NCBI GenBank assembly: GCA_963667855.2
Contig: CAXXKI010000019.1
Span: 127,411-191,410 of the forward strand
Length of the DNA stretch: 64,000 nt
Direction of reading: 5' to 3'
From: Phycisphaerae bacterium
Lineage (GTDB): Bacteria; Planctomycetota; Phycisphaerae; UBA1845
Shown piece by piece: positions 13,066-61,457 of the stretch. The translations under genes were made by a program, and so were the position numbers. The number at the start of each line of letters is the position of its first letter. Position 1 is the first letter of the stretch. The notes under the pieces are model-generated. The model ran no database searches. It was not told the DNA's origin and worked only from the letters and a program-made list of their open reading frames with translations.

Positions 13066-14082
13066 TTGTTTAAAACCAGTATATACGCAGCTTTTCTATC
13101 TACCTGTCTGATCGCCTCGGGTGCGGTAGCCACCACCATCAACCCGTTTGATTTCAATGTTTACAGTTTAGGGGATATCGGAACTGAGCACTCCGGTTAC
13201 CGCAGCGATTTCCAGGGTATAGCGGGAGCAGGTGGAAGCGCCTATTTCAACGGTTTCAGCCTGCACGATGTCGCGGCGTCCGGTCCGGGTACGCCCTATT
13301 CTCTTTATGCCGGAGGTAACGCCTACATAGGCGGATCGATCAATAACGGTGGTATAGAAGCGGGCGGGAACGTCCATATAAACGGCGCCAGCGTCGACGG
13401 AAATTTGAATATTGGCGGCAGCCTCTACGGCACCGGCGGAAGCATCAGTGGAAACGCATACATGAGCGGGACCGATTATACCGGATACTCTGTGAGCGTA
13501 TCGGGAAACATAGTTGAACAAAACCTCTACCAGCCTACCTTCGACCTGCAATCCACCAGTAACTACTTCCTCAATGCCAGTGATAGCGTTGGGAAAATGC
13601 AGGCGAACACCTCCTACACCGAACAGTGGGGGAAGATGAGTGTAGCCCTTTCATCTGGCACCAACGTGCTGGAGCTGAAAAGCGACGATCTTAAAGGCCT
13701 CTGGAACGTGGACATAACCGGTCCCGATGATGCCACCCTGTTTATCAACATTACCGATGACGACGTATCGCTTTCGCCCAGCTTGAGCTGGACTTATTCG
13801 GGCGGCATCGGCGCGGAAAACGTCCTGCTCAACCTGGCGTTTGCTGATAAGCTGAAGATCAACGGCGGAAGCCACACGGTGAACATTCTCGCACCGAACG
13901 CTGATGTTCAATTTCCCTACGGGCTGGTCACCGGAAACCTTATAACCGGCTCATTGACCGGCGGAGGACAGGTGAATTCCGGAGCGTTCGTGAATGACCG
14001 CATCATACCGGAGCCGACTTCTCTGCTTCTGCTGGGATTAGGCGGGCTGGTATTAATTCGCCGTAAGTGTATACGTAGATAA
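13066..14082 (+). CDS. choice-of-anchor A family, PEP-CTERM surface protein
   Basis: Signal peptide, Gly-rich beta-solenoid (FNVY...ENVLLN...ILAPNA), C-terminal IPEPTSLLLLGLGGLVLIRRK. Confidence 0.85.
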   Translation: MFKTSIYAAFLSTCLIASGAVATTINPFDFNVYSLGDIGTEHSGYRSDFQGIAGAGGSAYFNGFSLHDVAASGPGTPYSLYAGGNAYIGGSINNGGIEAGGNVHINGASVDGNLNIGGSLYGTGGSISGNAYMSGTDYTGYSVSVSGNIVEQNLYQPTFDLQSTSNYFLNASDSVGKMQANTSYTEQWGKMSVALSSGTNVLELKSDDLKGLWNVDITGPDDATLFINITDDDVSLSPSLSWTYSGGIGAENVLLNLAFADKLKINGGSHTVNILAPNADVQFPYGLVTGNLITGSLTGGGQVNSGAFVNDRIIPEPTSLLLLGLGGLVLIRRKCIRR

Positions 14083-15252: not shown

Positions 15253-16566
15253 GGTTCATCCGACTAAAGCGTACATGGACTAGCAAAAAGGCGGACATGA
15301 TGTTCTCATCTGAGGTTGTCAAAGACTTCAGATACAGGAGACGCCATCATGTCCACCAGCTTACTATATCACGGATTCGGGGTTCGTGGCTATATTTACG
15401 AACGAACAGAATACAAGCACGGCCAGGTTTTTTTCTCGCTCAGCCAGCCACGAAACACCCTGCGGTGTTCAGCCTGTGGTTCAAAGAATGTTGCTCCCCG
15501 TGGCCACACTGAGCGGAGTTTCAAATCGGTACCAATCGGTGGCAAGGCAGTGAAAATCGTTCTTCCTATCCCTCGCGTTGAGTGTTCAGACTGCGAAGTC
15601 ATCCGACAGGTGGAGATTGGATTTGCCGATCGCCGCCGGAGTTACACCCGGTCGTTTGAACGATATGCGTTGGATCTCTTGCGTCATATGACGATTAAGG
15701 ATGTGGCCGAACACCTGCAGGTTAGTTGGGATGTTATTAAGAAGATACATAAACAGGATCTGCTTAAGCGGTTTGTCCGTCCAAAGCTCAAGCATTTACG
15801 CCAAATAGCTATCGATGAAATCTCGATCGGCAAAGGTCACCGCTACTTGACCGTAGTACTCGATTTAGAGCGTGGTGCGGTGGTGTATGTGGGCGATGGC
15901 AAGGGAAAAGAAGCTCTCAAACCGTTCTGGAACCGATTGCGAAAATCCCGAGCGAAAGTCAAAGCGGTAGCCACTGACATGTCTCCGGCCTACATTGATG
16001 CGGTCTCGAGTAATCTGCCAAACGCTGCACTGGTTTTCGACCGCTTTCACGTAATGAAGCTTTTCAACGATAAATTGTCGGAGTTGCGAAGAGATCTGTA
16101 CCGTGAAGCCAAGGATCAGTTGCACAAGAATGTGCTCAAGGGGACGCGATGGTTGCTGCTGATGAATCCCGAAAACTTGAACTCTGATAGCAGTGGACTA
16201 AAGCGTCTTGAAAAAGCGTTACACCTCAATCAACCTCTGGCCACGGCCTACTACATGAGGGAGGAACTACGCGAAGTCTGGGAACAGGAAGACGGCGAGG
16301 CCGCCCAGGCCCATCTGATGGATTGGATATTTCAAGCGGAGGCCAGCGGAGTCAGGATGCTCAAAAAGTTTGCCCAAACACTCCGCCTTCATGCGTTTGG
16401 TATATTAGCGTATTATGATTATCCAATATCAACCGGTCCTCTCGAAGGAACAAACAATAAGATCAAGACCATGAAACGCCAGGCCTATGGATTTAGAGAT
16501 AAGGAATTCTTCAAACTGAAAATCCTCGCCATTCACGAAACAAAGTACGCGTTAGTCGGATGAACC
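15253..16566 (+). mobile_element. ISL3 family insertion sequence (1314 bp)
   Basis: Terminal IRs GGTTCATCCGACTAAAGCGTAC / GTACGCGTTAGTCGGATGAACC; 8-bp TSD AAAAAAAG at 15245-15252 and 16567-16574. Confidence 0.95.
15349..16563 (+). CDS. ISL3 family transposase
   Basis: Zn finger CSACG/CSDC, IAIDE, ATDMS, DRFHV, LEGTNNKIK...AYGFR; AGGAG RBS. Confidence 0.95.
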   Translation: MSTSLLYHGFGVRGYIYERTEYKHGQVFFSLSQPRNTLRCSACGSKNVAPRGHTERSFKSVPIGGKAVKIVLPIPRVECSDCEVIRQVEIGFADRRRSYTRSFERYALDLLRHMTIKDVAEHLQVSWDVIKKIHKQDLLKRFVRPKLKHLRQIAIDEISIGKGHRYLTVVLDLERGAVVYVGDGKGKEALKPFWNRLRKSRAKVKAVATDMSPAYIDAVSSNLPNAALVFDRFHVMKLFNDKLSELRRDLYREAKDQLHKNVLKGTRWLLLMNPENLNSDSSGLKRLEKALHLNQPLATAYYMREELREVWEQEDGEAAQAHLMDWIFQAEASGVRMLKKFAQTLRLHAFGILAYYDYPISTGPLEGTNNKIKTMKRQAYGFRDKEFFKLKILAIHETKYALVG

Positions 16567-24750: not shown

Positions 24751-25554
24751 AATGAAGTTTCGAGAACTCCATGTCAGATATCCCGTATTGACCAGAGATG
24801 AACTCCAAAGGTACCTCGACCAGGAGTACACCCGAAACAGCAAATCGCGGGATATGCTTCTGTCTTATCACCTGCGCCGGGGGAATATGATACGCGTTCG
24901 CCGGGGAATATACGCAACGGTTCCCCCTGGCAGCGATCCGCAAACATATCCTGTAGATCCGTATCTTATAGCGGCCAAGTCGGCTCCGGATGCGGTGCTT
25001 GCTTATCACACCGCCCCTCGAATTACATGGTAAAGCCCAATCCGTATTCGAACAGTTCGTCTATTTGAGTAACAGAACTCGCTCCCCCTGGGTGTTTCGA
25101 AATCACCGATTCGAGTGTGCAATTTTTCCCAAGGCACTGAGACAAAGGAAAAAACAACTATTTGCCACCAAAACAATAGACAGGCTGGGGCTAGAAATCA
25201 AAGTTACCAACCTGGAACGCACCATGGTGGATTTGCTGGATCGACCTGACCTGGGGGGGCGGATGGGAAGAGGTTTGGAGGTCCCTTGAGGCAGTGGAAT
25301 ATTTCGACCTGGACCAAGTTGTCGAATACGTCGAACTGATGAACAACAAAACCCTGGCTGCCAAAGTCGGATATTACCTTGAACGACATGCCGAACCGCT
25401 TATGGTTGAAAACAAGCATTTGGACGCCCTGCGAAAACTACGACCCAAACAACCACATTACCTCCAGAGAGAGAAAGGCGGTAGGTTCATAAAAACCTGG
25501 AACCTGGTTGTACCGGAACAATTAACCACTCAGGATTGGGAGGAACGCATATGA
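24751..25554 (+). pseudogene. abiEi: type IV TA antitoxin AbiEi-like transcriptional regulator, frameshifted
   Basis: RVRRGIY, DPYLIA, AYHTA|LELHG, TNLERTMVDLLDRPDLGG, WNLVVP across three frames. Confidence 0.8.
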
Positions 25555-26516
25555 AAGTGTCACGCGAAAAACTCCTGCGAGAGTCACAGAGTACCGATTT
25601 TCGGCCGGAGGTTCTGAAAAAAGCAATCCAGCTCCTAAGCCTGCTCGAAGGTTTTAATAAACATCCATTCCTCAAAAATCGATTGGTACTCAAAGGTGGA
25701 ACAGCTCTAAACCTTTTTACGTTTAACCTGCCACGCCTATCTGTTGATATCGACCTCAACTACGTCGGAGCAAAAGACAAAACGACGATGGAAACAGAAC
25801 GCTCAAAGATAGAACAAGGCGTTCAAGCTGTTTGCTCACGCGCGGGTATGAATGTAATGAGAGTACCGACGGATCATGCAGGCGGTAAATGCCGGCTGCG
25901 CTACGCAAGTGCCTTAAGCGAAGGGGGCAACCTGGAAGTGGATTTAAACTTCATGCACCGCGTACCTCTCTGGCCGGTCACAAAGGTGGACTCGACAATC
26001 GGGTTCCTATTCCGCCAAACAGATTACCGTCCTGGATATCCATGAGCTTGCCGCCGGTAAACTCGCAGCATTATTTGCCCGTCATGCCAGTCGTGATCTC
26101 TTCGATGCTCATCATCTTCTAACCCAAAACTAATCTTGACCTGGATAAACTGAGATTGGGGTTCATCGTTTACGGTGCAATGAACCGCAAGGACTGGCGA
26201 ACCATATCACTCGAAAACGTCGGCTACGATCCTCTGGAATTTGAAAATCAGTTAGCTCCCGTCGTTCGCAATGAATTTCTGGGCAACCACAAAACCGACG
26301 AATGGGCCAAGCAATTGATCTCAGAATGTCGTCGAAAACTTGAAGTTGTTCTGCCCCTAAAAAACAAACGAGCTGAAATTCCTCGACAGGCTGCTCGACG
26401 AGGGGCGGATAGAACCGCGATTGTTAACAGCAGATGGTAATATGTGCCAATTGATTGAGTCTCAACCACTTTTACAGTGGAAAGCTCTCAATGTAACAAA
26501 ACACAAAGGGGGATAA
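25551..26516 (+). pseudogene. abiEii: type IV TA toxin AbiEii/AbiGii nucleotidyltransferase, frameshifted
   Basis: LKGGTALN...PRLSVDIDL, VDLNF, then HELAAGKLAALFARHASRDLFD in another frame; ATGA overlap with the antitoxin stop. Confidence 0.85.
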
Positions 26517-39631: not shown

Positions 39632-41091
39632 CAATAGTGTTCGGCACGGCAATTGCGTATTGAAGAATGGTGATGAAAATAATGCTTTATAATGAAGGTT
39701 AAAGGCATTATCGGGAATGGAAGGAAAAAATCTGCGCAGCATCAAGGGGCGGCTGGTTATAGATAAACCGCAGCTTAGGGTTGTGGTTTGAGTTTTTCGA
39801 TATGAGCAAGCAGTTCCTCTTCGTCAGCCAAGCCGCTCATGTAATAACAAAGCATTTCGTAGGTGCGAAGGGTCGGTTTCCGCCCCGTCCACAGAGTGAT
39901 CAGTAGAGATGCTATAATCGCCACGTAAGTTTGGATTTCGATGCCGTTCTGGCAGTGACTCAGCAAATGTCGGCACCCCAGAATATGTTTAAAAAAACGG
40001 AAGAATGTTTCGATGGCCCAGCGATGCTTGTAAATCAAGGCTATTACTTCCGGATCTACGTCCATGATGTCGGTGGCTACAAGAAGCACTTCGCCTTGAT
40101 CAGGGCCACCTCTGGCGTTTTTCTTAACCTTGTGGCGAGGTTCGCTGGCGATCTCTACTAATCGCAGAGGTCTGTTCATTCCGGTTTTGCCTGCCTGCTC
40201 TCCGGTAAATCGGATCGTCATGTCCCGTCGAATCTCACCAGGTTTGGCGTTGGGAGATGAGGCTCGTTCTTCCAGAACATCGAACACGCTGTTGTCGCGT
40301 ACGCGGCAAACGAACGAGGAATTCGCCTTAAGAATATCGGCAAAGAGCTCAAACTTGGCGTATCCCCGATCCAGAACGTAAACCCGATCGGGCGACAGGT
40401 TCGCCTGCAATACGCTTCTTTCGTTACCGTCGCCGTCAGTTAAGTCCATATGAGTTGGTACGCCTTTAAGCAATTCAAAATGCGTGTGCAACTTTATGCC
40501 GTGCATCCCTTTGGCATTACTCCACATCGCCTGCACAAGCTTTGGGAGAGCAGACAGGACCGTACCGTCCACCAATGTAATAATACCGCGAATGTCTTCC
40601 AATTCCCTGTTGCCCTTGAGAGTTGGCAGCTTGTCGACCAGTTCTCCGATAATTCCGCGAAGCAACTCGGCATCAAACACCCTCGCTGCTTCTGAGAGCG
40701 AACCGAGTGAAGTTCGAGGACAACCAAGGATTCTTTGTACTTTCTTCAATTCTCCAGCCTGTTGGATACCCCGCAAACTTGTGACTATAGGGTTAAAGAA
40801 ATACAGAAGAATCAAGGCCGTGTACTGGTCGTAATGGAGCTTCCGGTTACCGGCGATATCCCGGGCACAAGCGGCATCGTGAAGCTTGTCCAGCACTGGC
40901 AAAAGCAGCTTGAAATGCTTGAACCCTTGCAGATCCTGCTCTTGAATTTTCGGTTTTTTCTTCCCAGCCATACATGAACAGTATGAACCAAAGCCGCGCA
41001 ATGCGCAAGTAAAATGTGGCGCGACATGTAAAGCTATGCGCGACACGTGGTTATAGAAATCTACAAGCAATTGCCGTGCCGAACACTATTG
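39632..41091 (-). mobile_element. IS4 family insertion sequence (1460 bp)
   Basis: 25-bp perfect IRs CAATAGTGTTCGGCACGGCAATTGC / GCAATTGCCGTGCCGAACACTATTG; 9-bp TSD GTGATGTCC at 39623-39631 and 41092-41100. Confidence 0.95.
39775..40971 (-). CDS. IS4 family transposase
   Basis: VDGT, KLH, LDRGY, YKHRWAIETFFRFFK (YREK motif). Confidence 0.95.
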   Translation of the reverse strand: MAGKKKPKIQEQDLQGFKHFKLLLPVLDKLHDAACARDIAGNRKLHYDQYTALILLYFFNPIVTSLRGIQQAGELKKVQRILGCPRTSLGSLSEAARVFDAELLRGIIGELVDKLPTLKGNRELEDIRGIITLVDGTVLSALPKLVQAMWSNAKGMHGIKLHTHFELLKGVPTHMDLTDGDGNERSVLQANLSPDRVYVLDRGYAKFELFADILKANSSFVCRVRDNSVFDVLEERASSPNAKPGEIRRDMTIRFTGEQAGKTGMNRPLRLVEIASEPRHKVKKNARGGPDQGEVLLVATDIMDVDPEVIALIYKHRWAIETFFRFFKHILGCRHLLSHCQNGIEIQTYVAIIASLLITLWTGRKPTLRTYEMLCYYMSGLADEEELLAHIEKLKPQP

Positions 41092-44038: not shown

Positions 44039-45880
44039 TCACTCCTCGTCGACCCGCCCCCGGTGAGGACGGCCTAGTATCGCCCACGCCCGGCGTCCAA
44101 GGATCACTGAGAATATATCACCACCCCGGCCATCTATATTTCTGGCGAGCAGTAAAATCAACGCAATAACCACACCAACTATAAAGCCACCTAGATGCGC
44201 CCAGTGAGCGGTTCCCGTATCACCACCGTAGATGGTGTAGAAAACATCAAAGCCGATGAAAAACAGAACAACCCAGAATCCACGCAGGGAAAATATCCGC
44301 AAATAAAGACAGAAGATAAGATACCGGAACCAGAAAGCCATATGAACTTTATGTACCGGAAACAGAACGAAATACATACCGGCCAATCCCATTATCGCTC
44401 CCGAAGCACCAACACACGGAGAGATAGTATCTCCATTCATTGAAACCACGTGAGCAATCGCAGCCCCAACAGCCAGGACAGGATAGACAATTATGGTTTT
44501 AAGGTTTCCGATCAATGCGTTTACCCTCGATCCGAAAACCAATAAAAAGAGCATATTGCCCAGCAGGTGCAACGGATCGCCATGAAGAAACGCGTGAGAA
44601 AACAGTTGCGATACGCTGAAACTGCCCACACATTTCTGGTTAGCGTTCAATGAATCGTGCGCAGCCCGTACGCACTCATCTCCACTTAAACCTTCATCTG
44701 TAAACCGATCCTTGGCGGCCAGATACGCCTGGGAATCTCCCCAGGATGTGTAGAAATACACCTCCTCGAGAATTTCCGGATCAAGTTCTACGTCCCCCGC
44801 CCAGAGCATGAGATTCTTGTGCGATTGCATTGATGATGAATTTTTCCAATCAACCACAAAGAACCAGCAGCTTATTATTATGGTTAAAACCGTTATAGCT
44901 CGGATAACATGCGGCTTCTTCGTCCCAAACGCCTCTGACGCAATTGGATAGATACCAAACCAGATGATCCAGCTTATCAGAAACAGCACCCCTTCCGCCG
45001 CCTCGCGATTATCATCCATCCCGGAGTCATGCGAAGTAATAATGGGTCTGCCGGTACGAATATCTATACCGCACTGCACGCAGATTCTACTGCGATCGGG
45101 TAGTCGTCTTTTACAACTCGGGCACTCTGGACCATTGTGATTACCTGCTTGCGGCGGTTTTACCGGCAGCGAAACCGGAGGACCGGCATCAAGCTCATCG
45201 TCGTCGATCAGGGTAAACATTGCCCCAAAATCACCGCTGTCATCGCTGGATTTGGTTTTGCTTTTTTTCGACGGCACCCGCTCCGGTATCGGCGGAGGAA
45301 CCGATTCCGATATCGGAATAGACAATGGAATCGGATAAGACACCGGCGGTTCATCGCGGTTTATTGGAACTTCTGAATCATGCCCGCTACCAGCAGACCC
45401 TGGTTCAAAAGTCGTCGAAACAACAGCCTTTCCACTACACCGCGGCGGTGGCTCGGCAATGTATTCCAGTTCATAGTTGCCGATCAGGACAACGTCACCG
45501 TTTAACAGGTTCCGGCCATTGACCAGACGCCCGTTAACCATCAACTCCAGAGTACGACTGATATTCTCAATGCGCCAGCCGTATCCTCCCTGGAGCAATC
45601 TGCAGTGCTCAATATCAACCGAAGAATGGCCCAGATGGAAATCAGCCCTTACCGATCTCCCGACGATCATTGGTTCTTCGCCGCAGGGAAAAACCTGCTC
45701 ATCAAGCCTGCCCGGTCCGTTGCGAATAATCAGCCGGGCCTGAGGGGTTGCGTCAGTCCGCAATCCACCGGCAGCTATTATTCGCGTTTTCCGCTCGCAA
45801 CGAGGACAGGATGTAAGTTTACCGACATGCTCACCGGGAAGCTTGAGATCCTTGCCACATTGACACCTCATCCTGATCAT
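44039..45880 (-). CDS. Zn-ribbon/FHA/Zn-ribbon-fused rhomboid intramembrane serine protease
   Basis: CQCG...CPRC; FHA-like VGR...EHC...VNG...GD; Pro-rich linker; CPSC...CVQCG; HAFLHGDPLHLLGNM, GASG, AHWAHLGG. Confidence 0.88.
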   Translation of the reverse strand: MIRMRCQCGKDLKLPGEHVGKLTSCPRCERKTRIIAAGGLRTDATPQARLIIRNGPGRLDEQVFPCGEEPMIVGRSVRADFHLGHSSVDIEHCRLLQGGYGWRIENISRTLELMVNGRLVNGRNLLNGDVVLIGNYELEYIAEPPPRCSGKAVVSTTFEPGSAGSGHDSEVPINRDEPPVSYPIPLSIPISESVPPPIPERVPSKKSKTKSSDDSGDFGAMFTLIDDDELDAGPPVSLPVKPPQAGNHNGPECPSCKRRLPDRSRICVQCGIDIRTGRPIITSHDSGMDDNREAAEGVLFLISWIIWFGIYPIASEAFGTKKPHVIRAITVLTIIISCWFFVVDWKNSSSMQSHKNLMLWAGDVELDPEILEEVYFYTSWGDSQAYLAAKDRFTDEGLSGDECVRAAHDSLNANQKCVGSFSVSQLFSHAFLHGDPLHLLGNMLFLLVFGSRVNALIGNLKTIIVYPVLAVGAAIAHVVSMNGDTISPCVGASGAIMGLAGMYFVLFPVHKVHMAFWFRYLIFCLYLRIFSLRGFWVVLFFIGFDVFYTIYGGDTGTAHWAHLGGFIVGVVIALILLLARNIDGRGGDIFSVILGRRAWAILGRPHRGRVDEE

Positions 45881-45968: not shown

Positions 45969-47474
45969 TTATCCCCAGGACCAGGCGAAACGATCTTTGA
46001 AATGATGGTAATATAAACCTATCACCCTCATGGCCACTATTCCGAAATATACAGATACAACCGACACGACCATTGACAATAGCAGCGGGTGATTTCCTAA
46101 TCCCGGCAAGGCACCGATCAGGAAACACGCCTTATACTTAGTCATCAATGCCAATCCCGCCATCAGGAAAGTCACCACATAAGGGACAAAGGTCTTTATA
46201 ATCGTGCTTACAATGAGGTCTGGCCGGGAAAAACAACTAAATCCCCCCATCGCCACCAGCAAAAGCACCATAGGCCACAAAAACAACCCTAAGCCCAGCA
46301 AGGTAAAGAAAATCCAATCCGGAGAACCCAATCTGACCACGCCCGGACCCGCAGTAGTCGCTATCCAGAACATACCGTAAAAGATAGCCGGACAGATCAC
46401 CATTAAACCGGCCAGAGAAAACTTTAAAAAGGGGATTATGACGCCATCAAACCAGCCGTCCGTAAAACTCAATTCGGGATTCTTCTTTTCGCCGGACGCG
46501 GCATACAATGCAGTATTGAAATAATACGAGAATATCCAACCATAAACAATTACCAAACCACATGGGATCAGTAAATACCCCATAATGCTGAACGACGGAG
46601 TAACAAACAAAAACGGCTCTATAACGGCAATAATCGCGACTACAATAAAAGAACTCAGGCTGTCGAAGTCTGTAAAAAACACAAAACTAGCCAAACAATC
46701 TCTCAAGAAAAACACCCAGCCTGTCCCCGGGGCCTTTTTCGTTGCCCCTTTCGCCCCCTCAAAATCCATCGGAGCAACTGCTATCGGTTGGCCGGTAAGC
46801 AGATCAATGCCGCACGTAACACAAACACGGGCATCGGCAGGACGAGATTTACCGCACGCAGGACACACCTGCTCGTCGCTCGCCAGGTTCACACCGCCGC
46901 CTTCAACGTGTTCAACTGGAACCGGCGGCACGCAGGAGACCGTATTTCCGCTATCCGGCAGATCATCCAGCAAGGTAAGCTCACCATTACCACTCCGCCC
47001 CACAACATCCAATCCTTCAGCAACATCGCCACCGCGTTGCCTTTCACCCATCCGATAGAGTAATTCGTATTCCCCTATCCGAATAGTATCGCCGTCGCAT
47101 AGATCATGCTCCCTCACCGAACAACCGTTAACGAACAGTCCATTAGTGCTGCCCAGATCCTCCACTCGCCATCCGGCAGCACCCATTACCAGACGACAAT
47201 GCCTGCGTGATACCGAGTCGGATCTCAACCGCAGTTGAGATTCCGCGGACTTGCCTATCGTGATTGCTCTTTCCCCTACAGGGTAAATACACTCCCCCTT
47301 TTGCTGAGGACCGCTCCGCACACGCAGGTAGTGTCCAGCTTCATTATCAGAATGCCCGGCCCCGGCCGATACGACCCGAACCTTATTGCCGCAACCGGGA
47401 CAGGCTGCCGGTTTCCCCAGCATACTGGAACCGAGCTTGAGCCACTTTCCACAATCGCACTGGATTCTGATCAT
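45969..47474 (-). CDS. Zn-ribbon/FHA/Zn-ribbon polytopic membrane protein (DUF4013-like C-terminus)
   Basis: CDCG...CPGC; FHA IGK...VSRRHC...DLGSTNG; CPAC...CVTCG; about six TM helices; GGAG RBS. Confidence 0.82.
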   Translation of the reverse strand: MIRIQCDCGKWLKLGSSMLGKPAACPGCGNKVRVVSAGAGHSDNEAGHYLRVRSGPQQKGECIYPVGERAITIGKSAESQLRLRSDSVSRRHCRLVMGAAGWRVEDLGSTNGLFVNGCSVREHDLCDGDTIRIGEYELLYRMGERQRGGDVAEGLDVVGRSGNGELTLLDDLPDSGNTVSCVPPVPVEHVEGGGVNLASDEQVCPACGKSRPADARVCVTCGIDLLTGQPIAVAPMDFEGAKGATKKAPGTGWVFFLRDCLASFVFFTDFDSLSSFIVVAIIAVIEPFLFVTPSFSIMGYLLIPCGLVIVYGWIFSYYFNTALYAASGEKKNPELSFTDGWFDGVIIPFLKFSLAGLMVICPAIFYGMFWIATTAGPGVVRLGSPDWIFFTLLGLGLFLWPMVLLLVAMGGFSCFSRPDLIVSTIIKTFVPYVVTFLMAGLALMTKYKACFLIGALPGLGNHPLLLSMVVSVVSVYFGIVAMRVIGLYYHHFKDRFAWSWG

Positions 47475-47975
47475 CCAAGTTCTCCGGACCGGCGATTCAC
47501 CCACTTCACCCTTTCCACGGTCAATCATCAGGTTACGCTAAAAATCAACCGCTTCACACCCGACTTCCAGACACTGCGATACGTATATTATCCTCTTCCA
47601 AGCCGACTTCCGCCGTTATAATAATCCTCAGACATTGTATAGCTTGCCTGCTATCTCTAATAGCTGCAATTCACGTATTACAAAACATCCCCCGCCACAC
47701 CCAATTAAACGTTTATTCCGCCATAAATCGGACAAATTAACGGGTAACTTGCTACTTGCGAATTCGAACAGAATTCGGAAATTCGGGCGACGCTTTGTTA
47801 AATTCGGTACGCAATTCTGCATTTGAATTGCTATGCTGATTTATCATCATCGGAAGACTGCTTAGAGTTTTTCCTTTGAAATCAGCATTAAGGGAGGAAC
47901 TGGCTATTCAGCACAGTCAGCGTTTTGGGCCACGATTACGTGTCGGCCGCCTTCGTCAATGGTTTTTCTGGGTTA

Positions 47976-48399: not shown

Positions 48400-50532
48400 C
48401 TATTGAGCTGATGGTTGTTCTGGTTTCGATGGTTCCGTTTTTCTAGCCAGGAGAATACCTATTATCACCAGGATTATTCCCGCTGCTATTATTTTTGAAG
48501 GGAGGTGATCCAGTTCACCTCGATCTGCTATTCCCAGGGTTTCCTTATACTTAGGCCAGAAGGAAATCAGCACGGCCGAGCCGTTGTGGAGCATGTGGGC
48601 GATAAGTGAAGGCCAGATCGATTTTGACTGCCAGCATAAAATTCCCAGCAAAATTCCCAATCCGAAAGTGAGGGCGAATTTCACCAGGATCACGTGGAAT
48701 ACGGCAAAAACACCGGCGGTTACCAGGATTACCGTCCACTTGCCGGCCGAACTGCGTAATCCGGACATAAGGAAACCGCGGAAGAAAAACTCCTCGCAGA
48801 TTGCTGGAACCACGGCGATCAACAACAGCGGCAGAAAAATCGAATAAGGTTCAAACGCCTTGAGCATCTGATCGTTGTTAGCCAGGATCTCGGCCGGTAC
48901 CTTGATTATCTTACTCTGCAGAACGAAAAGTTCGTGCGCGGGAATCCAGGCGACCGCCCCGATCAATACTCCGGCGATTACGTACCGCAGCCTGGGCAAA
49001 CGCAAAGCGAATGTCCGGCTCAGATTCACCTTGAAATACAGTAGTATCAAGGCTGGTCCCACTACCAGGAACAGCGGCATCATTCGAGCGGTTGACCTGA
49101 AGGTATCCAACAGGCTGCCGTTTTCATCCGGTTGGATGGAGAACTGTACGAACATCCACAAGGGAAAGAGGATGGCCGCTATGATCAGGGATAAAGATAC
49201 AGTCGGCGTTGATGCTGGATTAATCAATCGCCGGGTGAACGTACAGCGGAGCGAGCCGGAATCAGCGAACACCACCGATTCCATACTGAAGACACGGGAA
49301 GCTATGGTTATGGCGGTAGCTGCATACATGCTCGTACTCACCATCACCAGAGCGATGATTGCCCAATCCCAATGCCCCAAGAGCAGTTCCCGGGCGAGCA
49401 GGACCATGTTCATTACCGGTACGACTGTGTTTACGCCGGTAAGCTCGGTTCCGGGCAAAGCGGCCACCCCGCCGGGGATAAGAGCTGCGAGAATCACCGG
49501 CATGATATAGTTTTGAGCTTCCTTGAAGGTACGGGCATAGCTGCAGACGGCCACCATGATCGCGGCGAAGAGCAGGGCAAAGGGAATAAGTGTCAGAAGT
49601 ATGATCGGCAAAACCTCAAGAGGTAATTCCGTATCCACACTGCTGACAATCTCCGTAAAACCGCCGAAGTATAGCGTCAAACCTACACTGAGCAGGTTAA
49701 GCGCCGCTCCGAGCATGGCGATGGTGGCCACCACCAGGTATTTACCGGTAATAAGCTCCATCGGCGGAACCGGACAGACGATAAGGGTTTCCAATGTACC
49801 CCGTTCCCGTTCGCCGGCGGTGAGATCGATGGCCGGATAAATTGCCCCGGTTATGGTCATCAGCACCAGGACCAGGGGAATTATGGTTCCCAAAACCATA
49901 CCACCCACCTTTGCCGGTGGAGCCACGTTGAACGACTCGATCTTGATAGGATCGATTACCGAATTGGGAATGTTATTACCGACCAGGTATTGATCACGAG
50001 TTGAGCGGGAGAGCGTGTCGAAGATAAATTCCACTCTGCGCATGGCGCTTTCACTGCGCAGTTCCGCCCGGTCATAGAACAGCTCCACTGAATGCTGGGG
50101 AAATCGGGGAGTGCCACCGGCGTTAAGAGTAATTTTTACACCTACATCGCACTGGCCTTCGGATATGGATTGCGTGATATCGGAAGCAATAAGAATTCTG
50201 ATTTTCTCGGCGCTCTCGATATTTTCGTTTACGATTTTTTCATCGTCGCCGTCGGGATTGGCCTGGAAGATGGTCTTGGCATCTCGCAAAACACTTTGGA
50301 AAATCGCCAGGTTCTCCTGCTCCTCTTCAGGAAGACTCGGATCACCTTCTACAGCCACGGTAATCTGTTCGATAGTACTTTCCTGCATACTGAGCAGGTT
50401 CACCGAACCGAGAATCAACAGTGGGTAAAGCACGATGGGGACAACGATCATGGCGATCAGCGTTCGATGATCGCGGCAGATTTCCACCAGCTCTTTGGTA
50501 TAGATAGTTCTGATTCGTTTTCCCGGTCGCAT
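48400..50532 (-). CDS. natB: NatB-like ABC-2 permease fused to a CPBP (CAAX) intramembrane metalloprotease
   Basis: KELVEICRDHRT, AGERERGTLETL, ARTFKEAQ; EEFFFRG, FAVFH, HMLHN. Confidence 0.88.
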   Translation of the reverse strand: MRPGKRIRTIYTKELVEICRDHRTLIAMIVVPIVLYPLLILGSVNLLSMQESTIEQITVAVEGDPSLPEEEQENLAIFQSVLRDAKTIFQANPDGDDEKIVNENIESAEKIRILIASDITQSISEGQCDVGVKITLNAGGTPRFPQHSVELFYDRAELRSESAMRRVEFIFDTLSRSTRDQYLVGNNIPNSVIDPIKIESFNVAPPAKVGGMVLGTIIPLVLVLMTITGAIYPAIDLTAGERERGTLETLIVCPVPPMELITGKYLVVATIAMLGAALNLLSVGLTLYFGGFTEIVSSVDTELPLEVLPIILLTLIPFALLFAAIMVAVCSYARTFKEAQNYIMPVILAALIPGGVAALPGTELTGVNTVVPVMNMVLLARELLLGHWDWAIIALVMVSTSMYAATAITIASRVFSMESVVFADSGSLRCTFTRRLINPASTPTVSLSLIIAAILFPLWMFVQFSIQPDENGSLLDTFRSTARMMPLFLVVGPALILLYFKVNLSRTFALRLPRLRYVIAGVLIGAVAWIPAHELFVLQSKIIKVPAEILANNDQMLKAFEPYSIFLPLLLIAVVPAICEEFFFRGFLMSGLRSSAGKWTVILVTAGVFAVFHVILVKFALTFGLGILLGILCWQSKSIWPSLIAHMLHNGSAVLISFWPKYKETLGIADRGELDHLPSKIIAAGIILVIIGILLARKTEPSKPEQPSAQ

Positions 50533-50536
50533 ATTT

Positions 50537-51325
50537 CTATTGTCCGCCGTGTCGTATTCTCTGGATAACCTCGGGTCCATTCACTTTGAAGTCGGCATAG
50601 CCGACCAGTTTGAGAAAAACACTGCTCAAGCGATGTTCACCTGACAGCTCCTGCAATTGAGCCAGGGTACCTTCGGCCAGCATTTTCCCTTCGTAAAGCA
50701 ATCCGATTTCGTCACACAGGGTTTCCGCCTCGTCCAGGTAGTGAGTTGAGAGAACCACGGTTTTCCCTTCATCCCTTTCCCGGCAGATAAAATCGAGAAT
50801 GAGACGGTTACTCAAAACGTCCAGCCCCAGGGTAGGTTCGTCCATAATCAGGATGGCCGGATCACCCACAAGCGCCCGGGCAATACTGGTTCGCTGGCGC
50901 TGTCCCGTAGAGAGTGCCCCACAGCGAAGATCGGCGAAAGATCGCATCTCCAGCCAGTCAAGCAGATACTCAACTCGTTCGGTGCGTTTGGGTTCGTCTA
51001 TACCGTGCAAGTCGGCGAAATACCCCAGCAGTTCCCTGGGCGATAAACGCTGGTACAAACCGGTGTTGGCCGTGAGAAAGCCTATATCGCGTTTAACCGC
51101 AGCTGGATTGGCGGCGACGTGCTTGCCATTCATTATCGCCCGACCGCCGGTTGGGGTCATTAAACCACTTAACATTCGCAGTGTGGTTGTTTTTCCCGCC
51201 CCGTTAGGCCCAAGAAGTCCGTAGATTTTTCCCGCGTCAATCTGGAAGCTCAGACCGTTGACCGCTTTCTTCGGTTCACCGCTGGGTGTCGGGAATGTCT
51301 TCTGCAGGTTGTCGGCTATGATCAT
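50537..51325 (-). CDS. natA: NatA-like ABC transporter ATP-binding protein
   Basis: GPNGAGKTT, LSTGQRQR, MDEPTLGLD, STH. Confidence 0.9.
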   Translation of the reverse strand: MIIADNLQKTFPTPSGEPKKAVNGLSFQIDAGKIYGLLGPNGAGKTTTLRMLSGLMTPTGGRAIMNGKHVAANPAAVKRDIGFLTANTGLYQRLSPRELLGYFADLHGIDEPKRTERVEYLLDWLEMRSFADLRCGALSTGQRQRTSIARALVGDPAILIMDEPTLGLDVLSNRLILDFICRERDEGKTVVLSTHYLDEAETLCDEIGLLYEGKMLAEGTLAQLQELSGEHRLSSVFLKLVGYADFKVNGPEVIQRIRHGGQ

Positions 51326-51816: not shown

Positions 51817-53781
51817 ATGAATTCAATGCTTACCAACACAAAACAAATCCTGAATTCAAACACACGTGAATTGGCGTTTACCCTAATTGAAGTACTGATA
51901 GTGGTAATAGTTCTAGCTGTACTGGCGGCGATTGTGGTTCCAAGGTTCTCCAACGCGGCGGATGGAGCTCTGGACGCGGCGGTTGCAGCGAATGTACGAA
52001 CGCTCAACACGCAGGCGGAAATCCTCTTCCGCACTCACCAGGCCCAGCATGCTCCCGAATCCGAATGGATCACTACTCCCGAAGCTCTCAAGCTGGCGGT
52101 AAACGGACAACTGCCCGACGACTGGACCGTAAGCGGAAACACCTTTATCGCCCCTAACGACCAGCAGTTTTCGTTTACTGCGGAGACCTCTTCTTCTGCT
52201 GCGAAACTTGAGGATGAAAACGGCGGAACCGGCGAAACCACAAACCCGGAAGCCACTCCCACTCCCACGCCAACTCCTTCCCCGGGGTTATCCACCGACG
52301 GTTATACAATGGAGCAGATTCAGGCTTTAACCGGCGAGGATTTGCTTAATGCCAATCTAACTCCGGAGCAGATGGCCTGGCTAACGCCGGAGCAACTGGC
52401 CCAGTTCGATAATTACGATCTGGCGTCACTCTCACAAGAGCAGATCCAGGCTCTCACCGCTGACCAGATAGCTTCGCTTTCTCACGACCAATTCGCGGCA
52501 GTAGCAGGTTCTTTATCTCCTGAGCAATTGGCCTCCGCCAGCCCGCAGCAGATTGCCGCATTGAGAGAAGATATTTACAGTTCCCTGTCAACGGAACAGG
52601 CGGCTGCCCTTACAGAGGCTCAACTGGCCGAACGGGCTATAGCGGACGACATACGAACCTGGAATTACTTTAAATTCCGAAACCTTAGTCCGGAACAGAT
52701 TCCCTACCTGACCGCGGAACAGATTGCGTCCATCCCCGACAGTTACGAGATGAGCACCATTCCGGCGAATTGCCGGGCGGCGTTTACTCAGGAGCAACTA
52801 CAGGCAATCAATACCAGTGACGTTTCGCTGAAATACCTCACCGAGGCACAGCGGGAATTATTGACTTCCGCTCAGTACGCCGCCATCGACAACTATTTCG
52901 ACTTGAGATATGTTTCTCCGACACGTATCGAGGACGTAAGCGCCGATCTTATTGCTTCTATTCCCAATAGCTATGAAATGAGTACTATCTCCGCCGATAC
53001 GCGAGCGGCGATGACCACCGAACAATTGCAGGCCATCAATACCAGCAAGGTTTCTCTAAAATACCTGACGGAAGATCAGCGAGAGCTTTTAACCGCTCAA
53101 CAGTATGCGGATATTACCAAGTATACAGACCTGCGTTACGTTTCGCCTGATCGTTTTCCCGATCTATCGACCGATGTCATCGCCTCGATACCCAGCAGTT
53201 ATGAGATGAGCACCATTCCGGCGGTGTCGCGAGCGGCGATGAGTACTGAGCAACTGCAGGCGATAAACACCGGCAATGTATCACTTGGCTATCTGACCGA
53301 AAGCCAGCGGGAATTACTATCCGCTGATCAATATGCCAATATCGATGACTTCTATGAAATCAGGTATATTTCTCCATCACGTATTGCTGACGTGAGTACC
53401 GATCTGATTGCTTCCATTCCCAGCGATTATGAAATGAGTAAAATGTCCGCCGCTACCAGAGCGGCTATGACCACCGAACTGGTGCAGGCCGTAAACACGA
53501 GCAAGGTTTCGGTGTCCTATCTGACCACCGACCAGCGCGATCAGCTCACGACTTCGCAGATTCAGAACATGAAAGCCAACGACATCTATCTTCTGTCGGC
53601 TTCGCGCATAACTGATGTCTCAACGACACAGATATCGAGTATTACCAGTTCGTACCAGTTTAATAAAATACCAACCTCAAGTCTGCAGGCCATGACCATG
53701 GACCAGGTGTTGGCCATCGACGATGATATATATGAAAGGTACAAGGATCGCTTTACGGCCGAGCAACAAGCGTGGCGATAA
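51817..53781 (+). CDS. type IV prepilin-like protein with C-terminal 76-aa tandem repeats (paralog 1)
   Basis: A|FTLIEVLIVVIVLAVLAAIVVPRF; PT linker; LTxEQ repeats; 228-nt period at 52723, 52951, 53179, 53407. Confidence 0.9.
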   Translation: MNSMLTNTKQILNSNTRELAFTLIEVLIVVIVLAVLAAIVVPRFSNAADGALDAAVAANVRTLNTQAEILFRTHQAQHAPESEWITTPEALKLAVNGQLPDDWTVSGNTFIAPNDQQFSFTAETSSSAAKLEDENGGTGETTNPEATPTPTPTPSPGLSTDGYTMEQIQALTGEDLLNANLTPEQMAWLTPEQLAQFDNYDLASLSQEQIQALTADQIASLSHDQFAAVAGSLSPEQLASASPQQIAALREDIYSSLSTEQAAALTEAQLAERAIADDIRTWNYFKFRNLSPEQIPYLTAEQIASIPDSYEMSTIPANCRAAFTQEQLQAINTSDVSLKYLTEAQRELLTSAQYAAIDNYFDLRYVSPTRIEDVSADLIASIPNSYEMSTISADTRAAMTTEQLQAINTSKVSLKYLTEDQRELLTAQQYADITKYTDLRYVSPDRFPDLSTDVIASIPSSYEMSTIPAVSRAAMSTEQLQAINTGNVSLGYLTESQRELLSADQYANIDDFYEIRYISPSRIADVSTDLIASIPSDYEMSKMSAATRAAMTTELVQAVNTSKVSVSYLTTDQRDQLTTSQIQNMKANDIYLLSASRITDVSTTQISSITSSYQFNKIPTSSLQAMTMDQVLAIDDDIYERYKDRFTAEQQAWR

Positions 53782-53831
53782 AAAAGGGGTCAGGCTTACT
53801 TATTGCCGATAAGTAAGCCTGACCCGCTTTT
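53782..53831 (+). terminator. palindrome/terminator after pilin paralog 1
   Basis: GGGTCAGGCTTACTTAT-TGCCG-ATAAGTAAGCCTGACCC then a T-rich tail. Confidence 0.7.
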
Positions 53832-53885
53832 CCCTTTTTATTCTATTACTTATCAGGCTCCGCAACACTCGGCGGAGACAAATGC

Positions 53886-55850
53886 ATGCGACGTAAAATA
53901 AACAATCATAACTTCTTAAAATCCACAAACGGTCCCCGATCAGCGTTTACACTTATAGAGATTTTGATAGTCGTCATTGTTCTCGGAGTACTTGCCGCCA
54001 TCGTGGTTCCGCGTTTCTCCGGAGCCGCTGATGGAGCAGTCGACGCGGCAGTCGAAGCAAACGTACATTCACTCAATACACAGGCCGAGATACTTTTCCG
54101 TACTCACCAGGCTAAACACGCACCGGAAAGCGAGTGGATCACAACTTTAGTAAAACTCAAGGCGACGGTAAACGAGCAGCTTCTCGCCGATTGGACCATC
54201 AGCGGTGAAACTTTTATCGCTCCCAACGATAAGCGATTTGCCTTTAACGCCGAAACCTCTTCGTCTGCGGCCAAGATCCTCGAAGAAACCGAGGAAACCA
54301 CTTCAACCGCAGGCGATGAATCTGATCCCCAGAACGGCGACGATTCCTCTTCGGGAACTTCCACAGAGGGATATACGCAGGAGCAGATCCAGGCCTTAAC
54401 CGGAGACGATCTGCTGAATGCCTCTCTGACTCCGGAACAGATGGCCTGGCTGACCACTGATCAACTGGCCGAATTCAGCGAATATGATCTGGCCTCGCTT
54501 ACGGCTGAGCAGATTGCCGCACTGACCGCGGATCAGATAAACAGCCTGTCGTACGGTCAATTTGAGGCAATAGTCGGGGCTCTTTCTCCTGACCAGTTAT
54601 CGGCTGCGAGACCGCAATTGGTCGCCGCTTGCAGTGACGATGTTTTCAATGCCCTTTCGGCGGACCAGGTTGCCGCTTTGACCGAAGCGCAATTGGCCGA
54701 ACGGGCAATAGCTGATGACGTTCGCCAACTCCGTTATTCCCAATTCGAGAGTCTTCCTCCCGAGCATATTCCCTACCTTACCCCGGAGCAGATTGCATCG
54801 ATTCCCAGCAACTGGTATATGGGTAAGCTTTCTGATGAGCAGCGTGCGGAGTTGACCAAAGCACAGGTACAGGCGTTAAACACGGCCGATATTTCCCTGG
54901 GGCACCTTACCGCTGCCCAGATGGAATACCTTACAGACGACCAATACGCCTCTATTGGGCAAATATCAAGTATTGCTTACGTCCCGCCGGACAAGGTGGC
55001 TCTGCTTTCAACCGACGTAATCGGCTCGATTTCCAGCGACTGGTATATGGGCCAGTATCCGGACGAGGTTAAAGCCGCGTTCACTGCAGAACAGGTTCAA
55101 GCGCTGAACACGGCCGTGATTTCAACCGGTCACCTGACCGAAGCACAGCGGGAATATCTTACCGATGAGCAGTACGCCGCGATCGGCGCCATATCCAGTA
55201 TCGCCTACGTACCACCTGAGAAAGTACCACTTCTTTCGACTGAGGTAATTGGTAAAATACGTAGTGATTGGTATATGGACCAGTACCCCGATGAAGTTAT
55301 CGCCGCTTTCACCGCTGAGCAGGTGCAGGCCCTGAATACGGCGGTGATTTCAACCGGGCACCTGACCGAAGCACAACGACAGTACCTTACCGACGATCAA
55401 TACGCCTCTATCGGAAGTATTTCCAGTATTGCCTACGTACCGCCGGAAAAGGTGTACCTGCTCTCCACCGACGTAATTAGCGATATTCCCAGTGACTGGT
55501 ATATGAGCCGGTATCCCGAGGAGGTTAGAGCCGCACTGACTACTGAACAGGTGCAGGCCCTGGATACCAGTTCCGTTTCCATTAAGTATCTGACCGAAAC
55601 CCAGCGTAGCGATTTAACCACCGGGCAAGTCCAGAATGTCCGCTCTTCTGATATCGCCAACCTGTCCGCTACTCAGATTCCTCTGGTTACCACCACTCAG
55701 ATATCGGGATTAACCAGCTCCTATTACTTCAACATGATTCCTGATTCCAGCCTGCACGCAATGACCCGGGAACAGGTTCTTGCCGTGAACGATTCTCTCT
55801 ACGAAAACCACAAGGATCGCTTCACGGCCGAACAGCAGTCGTGGCGATAA
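53886..55850 (+). CDS. type IV prepilin-like protein with C-terminal 76-aa tandem repeats (paralog 2)
   Basis: A|FTLIEILIVVIVLGVLAAIVVPRF; GGAG RBS; 228-nt period at 54792, 55020, 55248, 55476. Confidence 0.9.
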   Translation: MRRKINNHNFLKSTNGPRSAFTLIEILIVVIVLGVLAAIVVPRFSGAADGAVDAAVEANVHSLNTQAEILFRTHQAKHAPESEWITTLVKLKATVNEQLLADWTISGETFIAPNDKRFAFNAETSSSAAKILEETEETTSTAGDESDPQNGDDSSSGTSTEGYTQEQIQALTGDDLLNASLTPEQMAWLTTDQLAEFSEYDLASLTAEQIAALTADQINSLSYGQFEAIVGALSPDQLSAARPQLVAACSDDVFNALSADQVAALTEAQLAERAIADDVRQLRYSQFESLPPEHIPYLTPEQIASIPSNWYMGKLSDEQRAELTKAQVQALNTADISLGHLTAAQMEYLTDDQYASIGQISSIAYVPPDKVALLSTDVIGSISSDWYMGQYPDEVKAAFTAEQVQALNTAVISTGHLTEAQREYLTDEQYAAIGAISSIAYVPPEKVPLLSTEVIGKIRSDWYMDQYPDEVIAAFTAEQVQALNTAVISTGHLTEAQRQYLTDDQYASIGSISSIAYVPPEKVYLLSTDVISDIPSDWYMSRYPEEVRAALTTEQVQALDTSSVSIKYLTETQRSDLTTGQVQNVRSSDIANLSATQIPLVTTTQISGLTSSYYFNMIPDSSLHAMTREQVLAVNDSLYENHKDRFTAEQQSWR

Positions 55851-55863
55851 CCTTGAGAAAAGC

Positions 55864-55913
55864 AAAAGGGGGTCCAGGCTTGCTTTTTCATAAGCGAGCC
55901 TGGCTCTCTTTTT
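55864..55913 (+). terminator. palindrome/terminator after pilin paralog 2
   Basis: CCAGGCTTGCTT...AAGCGAGCCTGG with a T-tract; similar to the element at 53782. Confidence 0.65.
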
Positions 55914-59917: not shown

Positions 59918-60643
59918 ATGAAAACTTTATTCGGATTTATTCTTATCAGCGTCTCGGTTTTGTGTACGGCCTGTAGCCGGAACCAACAGCGAAATTACGC
60001 ATACGATTCCGGCTATAATTATTTACGTGTTCGACAGCAAAGCCTGCCCGGGTCGGATCCCCGCGTAGTTGTTCTCGAACCATTACCGATTCCAGATTAC
60101 AAGCAGCCCTTCCCCGGTTTCGCCTCAGGCGCTGTACCAGTATACCTGACCGGTAACGGTATAAACCGTCCAACCTGTATAAATCCAACCGACCGACCAA
60201 TGGATTTGACAATCGAAGGGGAAGGTTTCTTCCCAGTCATGATAAAAAGAAACGGGCGGTTCACTACGGGTTACACCCGGCGAGGAAATTTCACAATTGA
60301 CGCTGAGGGAAGGTTGGCTCTAGGCAACAGTTCCGGCCCCTTGCTTGTACCATACATAACCATTCCGGAAGATACAATTGAAATCGTCATAACCTGCAAT
60401 GGATCGGTTACAGTAAAGGTTCCTGGCCATGATGGTTTTAACGAAGTTGGTAAAATCGAATTATCCAGTTTCGAATTTCCATCCGACATGGCCTACCTGG
60501 GCGATGAAATCTATGTAGCGACAGAACTATCCGGCGAAAAAGTAGAAGGCGAACCCGGTACCAGCGGGTTAGGCATGTTATCTCAAGGAATGGTGGAACT
60601 CGCCTGGCAACCTCGGTTTGTGTATTTATTGGGGATACAATAA
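59918..60643 (+). CDS. putative lipoprotein containing the FlgG/FlgE central (D1) domain
   Basis: LCTAC lipobox; TDRPMDLTIEGEGFF, YTRRGNF, G.L, SG...GEPG...QGMVE; lacks the D0 termini. Confidence 0.7.
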   Translation: MKTLFGFILISVSVLCTACSRNQQRNYAYDSGYNYLRVRQQSLPGSDPRVVVLEPLPIPDYKQPFPGFASGAVPVYLTGNGINRPTCINPTDRPMDLTIEGEGFFPVMIKRNGRFTTGYTRRGNFTIDAEGRLALGNSSGPLLVPYITIPEDTIEIVITCNGSVTVKVPGHDGFNEVGKIELSSFEFPSDMAYLGDEIYVATELSGEKVEGEPGTSGLGMLSQGMVELAWQPRFVYLLGIQ

Positions 60644-60824
60644 TAGAGTCACATCTGCCGAATCAACCGATTAACCGGGACAGGTTGTTCAGTCGTTGGA
60701 CAAGCCATAGCATACGTCTGAACATTCATTAGAAAATCAATAAAACCTGGTTCCTGGCGATCATCGAATTTAAATTTTCTTGCCGTATAATGACCGTTGG
60801 ATTTTTGTAACACAAGGAGTTGTC

Positions 60825-61457
60825 ATGGGCAAGCAGTATAATTCGAGCGAAGCGGGTAACACAGTCTCTGGTCGTGGGGATGGTGAACACCCAATCGAGC
60901 GAGTTTCGATGAATCTGTATTTTGGGGTATGGGTGGTAGTAATGGGACTTGTTTCGATCTTAGCTTTCGTTCCGGTCAGTTACGCTATCGCAGAGAATCC
61001 TAAACCGAGCAGTATTATTGCTCTTATGTATTTTGCTTGCTTTTTTGGCTTGGCGGTCGGGTTGTACGTTTTGTGGATTCATAGTCGGTATGTCGTTCTT
61101 GAATGGGATTCCGAAGGATTGGCTTGTCATACTGGTCTCGTGGATCCCGCTCATTATAGATGGCCTTGGTCGGACTTGGAAAAATCCTTCCTTTTCATTG
61201 AACAAATTAAATATGTAAAGGTATTTAGATTTGTTATAGTTTTACCTCAAGAAATTGTAGTAATCGACAATGCTCAGTTAGCTTTCCGAAGTGTTGACAG
61301 GCTTATCAATGCAATACGGCAACATGCAGACGTTGAAACATCAAAACTAGAGCGGAGTAAATCGCCGCGATTGCGGCTGTTGTCGACAATACAACCTCGT
61401 GCGGGTTGGGATGATATGCTACACCAATACGGTTTGGCCCAACAAAGATGCGAATAG
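60825..61457 (+). CDS. hypothetical membrane protein (PH-like C-terminal domain possible)
   Basis: AAGGAG RBS; two TM helices then a W...WS.L beta-rich region. Confidence 0.6.
   Translation: MGKQYNSSEAGNTVSGRGDGEHPIERVSMNLYFGVWVVVMGLVSILAFVPVSYAIAENPKPSSIIALMYFACFFGLAVGLYVLWIHSRYVVLEWDSEGLACHTGLVDPAHYRWPWSDLEKSFLFIEQIKYVKVFRFVIVLPQEIVVIDNAQLAFRSVDRLINAIRQHADVETSKLERSKSPRLRLLSTIQPRAGWDDMLHQYGLAQQRCE

Follow-up and report, generated by a model that had tools for sequence, protein, structure and literature searches.

Two adjacent genes in the 64,000-nucleotide stretch of Phycisphaerae DNA analysed here (contig CAXXKI010000019.1, positions 127,411 to 191,410; hereafter the window) encode proteins in which a predicted type IV pilin module is joined by a flexible linker to a long rod of very short helices, and these proteins are probably modular type IV filament subunits, with the pilin module as carrier and an ALTTAQ/helical-screw rod as the part displayed. 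The two open reading frames (ORFs), referred to as A and B (plus strand, 51817-53781 and 53886-55850), encode 654 amino acids (aa) each and have starts 2069 nt apart, as reported in a preliminary description of this DNA made from the sequence alone. The layout given there, namely a prepilin signal, a small pilin head, a flexible linker and a long helical repeat rod, was borne out. The two proteins could be aligned without gaps, with 371 of 654 residues (57%) being identical; the most similar parts were the head and the first of the repeat regions (maximum 87% identity, residues 39-76), and the least similar the interior 76-aa units (39-50%).

To begin with the carrier, both proteins start with a 20-residue leader followed by A|FTLIE and then VLIVVIVLAVLAAIVVP, the hydrophobic stretch being unbroken up to a proline at +22. 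The class III signal described earlier is present in A and B, with F21, E25 and P42 as mature-protein residues +1, +5 and +22; all three are conserved at 90% or more in a 22-member family alignment. Both proteins scored above the cut-offs of the prepilin profiles PF07963 (N_methyl; A 22.0 and B 22.8 bits, cut-off 21.2) and TIGR02532 (A 18.6 and B 22.9 bits, cut-off 16.3), and their N-terminal ~70-90 residues aligned with TIGR01710 (GspG; E 9.4e-8 and 3.2e-10). When the profile of the 22 family members was run against the PDB, it matched geopilin (E 3.8e-14), PilA5 (9.8e-12), MshA (3e-11) and GspG (7.6e-6), as well as PilA and PilE chains. The whole-protein AlphaFold model, built on the 22-row family alignment, reached a mean predicted local distance difference test score (pLDDT) of 87 and a predicted template modelling score (pTM) of 0.62, and its head consisted of a helix (residues 23-76) and four strands (104-133). 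When this model was compared exhaustively with 48,161 PDB representatives, its best solved match was that of the head to the MshA pilin (Z 6.1, root-mean-square deviation (rmsd) 3.0 A, 85 residues aligned), in agreement with the short pilin-like domain proposed earlier. Within the reach of sequence and prediction, the N-terminal module of A and B is a bona fide pilin module; unlike A and B, the small pilins MshA, ComGC, geopilin and GspG have no C-terminal extension.

The linker behind the head, described before as acidic or PT, is rich in proline and threonine (PT-rich) in A, is acidic in B and was modelled with pLDDT < 50 at residues 136-160. Beyond it, residues 165-653 were modelled as a continuous array of ~50 helices, each 4-6 residues long, and pLDDT exceeded 90 nearly throughout. 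The 76-aa period of the preliminary description was recovered as the top lag in both proteins (lag-76 identity 41% for A, 42% for B). With a hidden Markov model (HMM) of the unit, residues 305-608 of each protein were resolved into four full units scoring 109-130 bits apiece, flanked on both sides by partial matches, and both genes end in KDRFTAEQQ(A/S)WR. At the DNA level, the 228-nt period was detected by Tandem Repeats Finder only in B (54925-55567, 74% matches). In a repeat-only AlphaFold model (residues 289-532, pLDDT 96.8, pTM 0.87), the helix starts of a unit were spaced by 8, 8, 18, 8, 9, 8, 8 and 9 residues, the 18-residue step containing a 12-residue non-helical loop (INTSxVSLxYLT). 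Since these starts lie mostly about 8 residues apart and their spacings sum to 76, the 76-aa unit is, as modelled, a higher-order repeat of an 8-residue helix motif. Lags 25 and 51 were not taken to prove a superhelical turn of three helices, because a helix spacing of 8+8+9 alone yields them.

The idea that the repeat is a new invention specific to these paralogs had to be given up, as both proteins scored above the gathering cut-off (26.4 bits) of the curated 38-position Pfam profile PF20080, ALTTAQ (A 45 bits, E 8.6e-12; B 67.4 bits, E 8.1e-19). This profile covers mainly the regular 8-mer part of the rod (best stretches A 195-228 and B 189-222), and the 76-aa unit, which contains the 12-residue loop, forms a separate and much rarer sub-type. 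Other Pfam matches, including DUF5983 (30.9 bits in B, over a 20-residue stretch), Homeodomain and FliG_N, were treated as noise caused by repeat composition.

The top PDB sequence match was HeliScrew4 (9ZEM), with E 4.8e-27 for the family profile and 1.3e-16 for A alone, residues 180-267 of A aligning to residues 29-112 of the 9ZEM chain. According to a December 2025 preprint, HeliScrew4 is a computational design with a crystal structure at 2.2 A, and the alpha-helical screw it represents is defined by 8-residue repeats with S/T/D/N caps, a proline at N1, a hydrophobic core and 2.5-4.0 units per turn; the authors name 7QLR as the sole natural example in the PDB and term the fold dark matter (bioRxiv 10.64898/2025.12.04.691947). 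The prediction for the rod shows features of this screw, with helices of 4-6 residues at a spacing of 8-9 residues in addition to the 9ZEM alignment. HeliScrew4 and 7QLR, the latter the receptor-binding protein of the Clostridium difficile phage CDHS-1, resemble the rod in their short helices, 8-residue repeats, S/T caps and LTPEQ-like motifs; the non-helical loop of the 76-aa units is absent from the HeliScrew designs. As HeliScrew4 is a design, it is no homolog of the rod but an experimental proxy for its regular part, and the likeness is probably convergent or learned.

Comparisons of predicted structures were less specific. None of the 48,161 chains reached Z >= 5 with the repeat-only model, the whole model matched 7QLR weakly (Z 4.7, rmsd 4.2, 129 aligned), and 9ZEM was absent from every fold-library result. 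Foldseek against the PDB returned armadillo/HEAT solenoids for the full model (TM <= 0.16, rmsd 19-35 A) and mesothelin for the repeat-only model (TM 0.2-0.3), both of which were rejected as meaningful folds; the repeat-only model had no Foldseek match in the PDB at E <= 0.001. After realignment of Foldseek's top 962 chains mesothelin was the best row, again a weak one (Z 5.2, rmsd 9.1), and a viral structure library gave weak rows only (TM <= 0.39), mostly DUF4116 or uncharacterised proteins. We conclude that the predicted rod belongs with the short-helix solenoids of the ALTTAQ/helical-screw type and lacks a close solved counterpart. It would be roughly 15-25 nm long, a range that follows from the 2.5-4 units per turn of the preprint combined with an assumed rise of ~1 nm per turn.

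The earlier suggestion of a modular pilus system agrees with the definition of modular pilins in Raynaud et al. 2021, A and B having a pilin module, a linker and an extra module that is not pilus-specific (PMC8179133). The same study counts over 1,200 proteins of this kind, distributed over 264 architectures, and argues for display of the extra module at the tip, or along the filament body given a flexible linker (PMC8179133). Like PilB and PilC of Streptococcus sanguinis as described there, A and B combine a small N-terminal pilin module and a linker with a bulky module; they differ in that the grafted module is an all-helical ALTTAQ-type rod of ~490 residues instead of a vWA or lectin domain, and in having a long (~25 residues), disordered linker. 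The supplementary text of that study, in a possibly incomplete form, contained no mention of ALTTAQ, PF20080, Phycisphaerae or Planctomycetes.

In the mechanism that we propose, the head, linker and rod steps are supported by sequence and prediction, and we infer the steps of projection and contact, and with them filament display and any adhesive role of A and B. The carrier would be the prepilin N-terminus (leader, A|F, Glu5, Pro22) together with the small alpha1/beta-sheet head; it would be cleaved by the prepilin peptidase of the genome, and the subunit would be inserted by one of the type IV filament machineries encoded there. The disordered linker of ~25 residues would connect the head to the rod. 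The rod is predicted to be an array of very short helices ~8 residues apart, N-capped by S/T and carrying an invariant Gln in most turns; its distal two thirds would be made up of the four 76-aa units, each with eight helices and one 12-residue loop. The rod would project from the filament, either at the tip or laterally on the flexible linker, and would act as a shaft setting the reach, its length depending on the number of units. The strictly conserved free end (T-x-E-Q-x-x-W-R) and/or a face of the shaft would make the contact, for which a surface or a polysaccharide is the most plausible partner.

A word-indexed search identified 36 related proteins, 24 of which were close (E <= 2.5e-46, 380-1041 aa), and the named ones were from Phycisphaerae or Planctomycetes. 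Among the 11 genomic loci of relatives, 10 were in metagenome-assembled genomes (MAGs) or genomes of Planctomycetota and one was a weak partial match in a Mariprofundus MAG. The prepilin-type members carry 3-7 full units and share the C-terminal consensus ...T-x-E-Q-x-x-W-R, with W-R plus 0-2 residues forming the end of 21 of the 22 credible prepilin-type proteins (the exception being the start-truncated P0002) and Y613, Q630, T647, Q650, W653 and R654 of the cap being invariant in the 22 family members. The pilin heads of the relatives diverge much more than the rods: identity to the A head was 70% for B, 68.5% for the closest relative P0003, 30-36% for the P0010 group and ~27% for P0001, P0008 and P0014, and in several other relatives the head could be aligned with that of A in the hydrophobic helix only.

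The unit itself is not specific to pilins. A profile built from the eight units of the window and run over 1.84 billion representatives gave 418 matches at E <= 0.001, a number that fell to 164 at <= 1e-10 and to 62 at <= 1e-30; among the best 150 of the 418 clusters only ~6 were of the prepilin type, and the majority of the others in this set were giants of up to 4,414 aa or small signal-peptide proteins with the same C-terminal cap. Many of the unit-bearing giants show an LExLExRxxLS-type N-terminus. In the 34 best matches outside the family, Pfam domains found included G8 (15 proteins, mostly with a CEMIP beta-helix), RTX repeats (11), K319L-type PKD (8) and Laminin_G_3 (3), as well as cadherin-like, Big_9 and DUF642 domains, and most of the scanned proteins with the 76-aa unit also carried PF20080. 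Recurrence of the unit in giants with G8, RTX, PKD and Laminin_G_3 domains suggests that it is a portable extracellular module, often located beside carbohydrate-related or adhesion domains. Within the phylum the unit is rare (2 of 401 evenly sampled genomes at E <= 1e-8, including that of the window), and in the genome of the window PF20080 matched only genes A and B. The conserved free end, the variable number of units and the occurrence of the unit elsewhere beside glycan-related domains together suggest a shaft that sets the reach and whose far end is functional. Neighbours in a language-model search were likewise ALTTAQ clusters, from several bacterial phyla (top score 0.90). Two further observations are leads only: some of these neighbour clusters also bear Mesothelin or phage tail-chaperone Pfam families, and ALTTAQ-type repeats occur in P0025, from the green alga Mesostigma viride.

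Several observations weigh against the proposed mechanism. Pilus assembly genes are lacking nearby, as stated in the preliminary description: none of the 41 other ORFs of the window covered by a Pfam scan was identified as pilus machinery, none of 25 neighbour proteins at six loci of relatives was pilus-related, and ~105 kb separate the genes from the nearest T2SSE-type ATPase of the contig. The scores for TIGR01710 (A 32.2 and B 40.2 bits) are far under its equivalog cut-off of 88.85, with only positions 2-72 of 134 matched. The top row for the repeat-only model, 7QLR (Z 4.9, rmsd 7.5 A, 217 aligned), is weak and within one Z unit of unrelated rows. The genome encodes 43 prepilin-type N-termini, not all of which need be filament subunits, and a binding domain is not recognisable in A or B, which is why the rod may be a passive spacer. 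In favour of the mechanism, the genome does encode machinery: an A24 prepilin peptidase was matched once (Peptidase_A24, 59.3 bits) and T2SSE 20 times, with at least 7 of the T2SSE matches near full length, all unlinked to genes A and B. Neighbours common to the window and seven loci of relatives were not found (blastp, 1e-10).

A serious rival, although in our view an unlikely one, is that the prepilin N-terminus serves only as an export or anchor signal and that the rod is an envelope spacer or surface fibril in its own right, a role that the unit may also have in the giant non-pilin proteins, A and B not being filament subunits at all. The large number of prepilin-type N-termini fits this explanation, as does the isolated position of A and B, which stand alone with their own terminator-like hairpins and, like their relatives, far from machinery; moreover, the same rod and cap are found behind Sec-type signal peptides (P0024, P0075, P0083, P0101 and P0127) and in giant proteins. 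However, Glu5 and Pro22, which in type IV pilins are tied to filament assembly, are conserved at 90% or more across the family, and a complete pilin head fold is predicted to have been kept, of which a mere anchor would have no need. Minor pilin genes are also commonly detached from the machinery. We favour modular filament subunits.

The preliminary description had further proposed that each paralog presents its own aromatic ladder on the surface of the solenoid, with a ligand specificity of its own and with the repeats homogenised by concerted evolution, a view that we consider doubtful. In a maximum-likelihood tree, which covered 38 units belonging to 9 proteins chosen from 38 proteins, units 1-3 clustered by gene as claimed (A clade 91/92, B clade 100/99), whereas unit 4 clustered by position, those of A, B and P0003 forming one group (97/88). 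The same division applies to the signature differences (SYEMS versus DWYMG, LKYL versus TGHL and DLRYVSP versus SIAYVPP), which hold for units 1-3 and are absent from unit 4 of each gene. Residues were disjoint between units 1-3 of A and units 1-3 of B at 28 of the 76 positions, 13 of them strictly fixed, and the fixed differences include aromatic ones (Y6/W6, E7/Y7, Y36/H36 and L44/Y44). In favour of a ladder, the discriminating positions avoid the invariant scaffold (I2, M8, Q23, L37, Q41, L45 and Q49) and fall at slightly more variable sites of the family (2.04 versus 1.67 bits), a difference that is marginal (Mann-Whitney p 0.052); however, several of the fixed differences are conservative hydrophobic swaps (L24V, I27L, V32I and I67V) that look like core positions. 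A mostly corresponds to the family consensus (Y6, Y36, D58, R60 and R66), and B, like P0003, is derived.

Concerted evolution was supported in part, in that the interior units group by gene, but unit 4 groups by position and there was no within-gene excess of identical codons. DNA identity between units of the same gene was just 63-75%, synonymous sites between A and B are near saturation, and identical codons at conserved residues of units 1-3 were no commoner within a gene (0.32-0.54) than between genes (0.29-0.55), from which it follows that the gene-specific residues are old and kept by selection and that ongoing gene conversion is not indicated in the genome of the window. Repeat turnover is active elsewhere in the family, since the 228-nt units of P0003 (L003:7944-9911, 655 aa), the sole copy found in its complete chromosome, are 96% identical over 3.1 copies; such recent homogenisation in the closest relative speaks for the ladder proposal. 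A, B and P0003 have four units and 654, 654 and 655 aa, respectively, despite nearly saturated synonymous divergence and a range of 3-7 units in the family, and length seems to be constrained in this subclade. A complex prediction for the rods of A and B (residues 289-654 of each) scored 0.00 against a mark of 0.32 and counts neither way.

The coordinates of the two genes, their parts and the associated hairpins are given in Table 1.

Table 1. Features of the gene A/gene B locus (window coordinates; residues refer to the encoded protein).
Feature	Coordinates	Strand	Basis
Gene A, 654-aa modular prepilin (putative)	51817..53781	+	ORF; Pfam N_methyl and ALTTAQ; AlphaFold pLDDT 87
A pilin module, residues 1-135: leader, A|FTLIE, alpha1 23-76, 4-strand sheet 104-133	51817..52221	+	profiles; model
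A PT-rich disordered linker, residues 136-160	52222..52296	+	pLDDT <50; sequence
A regular 8-residue LTxEQ (ALTTAQ-type) helices, residues 161-304	52297..52728	+	PF20080; 9ZEM; helix every ~8 residues
A half-unit, residues 267-304, at the end of the LTxEQ region; similar to the latter half of a 76-aa unit		+	38-residue blocks
A four 76-aa higher-order units, residues 305-608	52729..53640	+	unit HMM 109-129 bits each; repeat-only model
A degenerate partial unit and conserved C-terminal cap ending YERYKDRFTAEQQAWR, residues 609-654	53641..53778	+	family alignment
Terminator-like hairpin, 18-bp stem, directly 3' of gene A; dispersed palindrome family	53787..53825	+	
Gene B, 654-aa paralog of A	53886..55850	+	ORF, profiles, unit HMM
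B pilin module	53886..54290	+	
B acidic linker	~54291..54365	+	
B four units	54798..55709	+	
B cap	55710..55847	+	
Terminator-like hairpin, 12-bp stem, after gene B	55874..55903	+	

A and B are probably separate transcription units, because each has its own strong terminator-like hairpin behind it. Both hairpins are members of a family of dispersed palindromes (CAGGCTTRC ... GYAAGCCTG) with 12 sites in the genome, compared with none for a reversed-pattern control, and resemble a repetitive extragenic palindromic (REP)-like element doubling as a terminator. In the same samples, further contigs matched just the 40-50-nt hairpin stretch. The full 4,251-bp stretch was present in a single contig without differences in two public DNA runs, possibly the window's own source. 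Four runs labelled seawater metagenome and one labelled marine metagenome contained small shares of it (0.10-0.13), on which no conclusion is based, and no RNA run was listed for it, which counts neither way.

Immediately upstream of gene A, on the opposite strand, are two overlapping genes coding for an ABC-2 permease with a C-terminal CPBP/Rce1-like intramembrane protease domain (48400-50580) and an ABC ATPase (50537-51325), and downstream of the gene pair, also on the opposite strand, lies a gene for a CHASE4 hybrid histidine kinase. Other genes of the window include two adjacent ones for FHA-domain proteins (44039-45880 and 45969-47528, minus strand), one of which is fused to a rhomboid protease domain, transposase genes of the ISL3 family and of the DDE_Tnp_1 type (15316-16563 and 39775-41070, respectively), a fragment with an AbiEii toxin domain (25536-26045), and a gene for a protein with a FlgE/F/G D1 domain of the flagellar rod/hook type (59918-60643, E 4.5e-15) followed by a 225-aa ORF that had no Pfam match (60780-61457). 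A protein with a pAdhesive_15 domain, a putative ice-binding-like adhesive domain, is encoded at 13066-14082 (E 3e-28), and a second pAdhesive_15 protein (L003:6437-7468, minus strand, E 2.1e-21) is encoded directly upstream of, and divergent from, the P0003 pilin gene.

Modular pilins, the curated Pfam family ALTTAQ and the helical screw as a designed fold are already known. The combination of a pilin with an ALTTAQ rod of ~490 residues, the 76-aa higher-order unit and the link of the screw fold to natural ALTTAQ repeats appear to be undescribed in the literature searched, from which the word ALTTAQ was absent. The modules described so far in modular pilins are globular binding domains or beta-rich domains, from which an all-helical rod with 3-7 units would differ, and such a rod would be another way to give a filament reach or a binding face. 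Surface fibres of this phylum have barely been characterised at the molecular level. In other planctomycetes, which did not include Phycisphaerae, 12-nm pili-like fibres that bind gold-labelled dextran were reported by Boedeker et al. 2017 (PMC5394234), and a link between A and B and these fibres, by analogy, would be speculative. A more far-reaching possibility is that ALTTAQ is the abundant natural version of the alpha-helical screw and in these Phycisphaerae forms rigid rods of a length set by the number of units, perhaps 15-25 nm, on type IV filaments, with a face or the W-R tip capturing polysaccharide and the two length-matched paralogs having two specificities. We regard this as very unlikely in its entirety; if true, it would show which molecules form thick, glycan-binding pili-like fibres such as those of other planctomycetes. 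A curated and unstudied Pfam repeat aligns to a crystallised design with E-values from 1e-16 to 5e-27, and rods hundreds of residues long are predicted with very high confidence. If this likeness is confirmed, the screw fold would be common in bacterial surface proteins, and A and B would be compact, expressible test cases for it.

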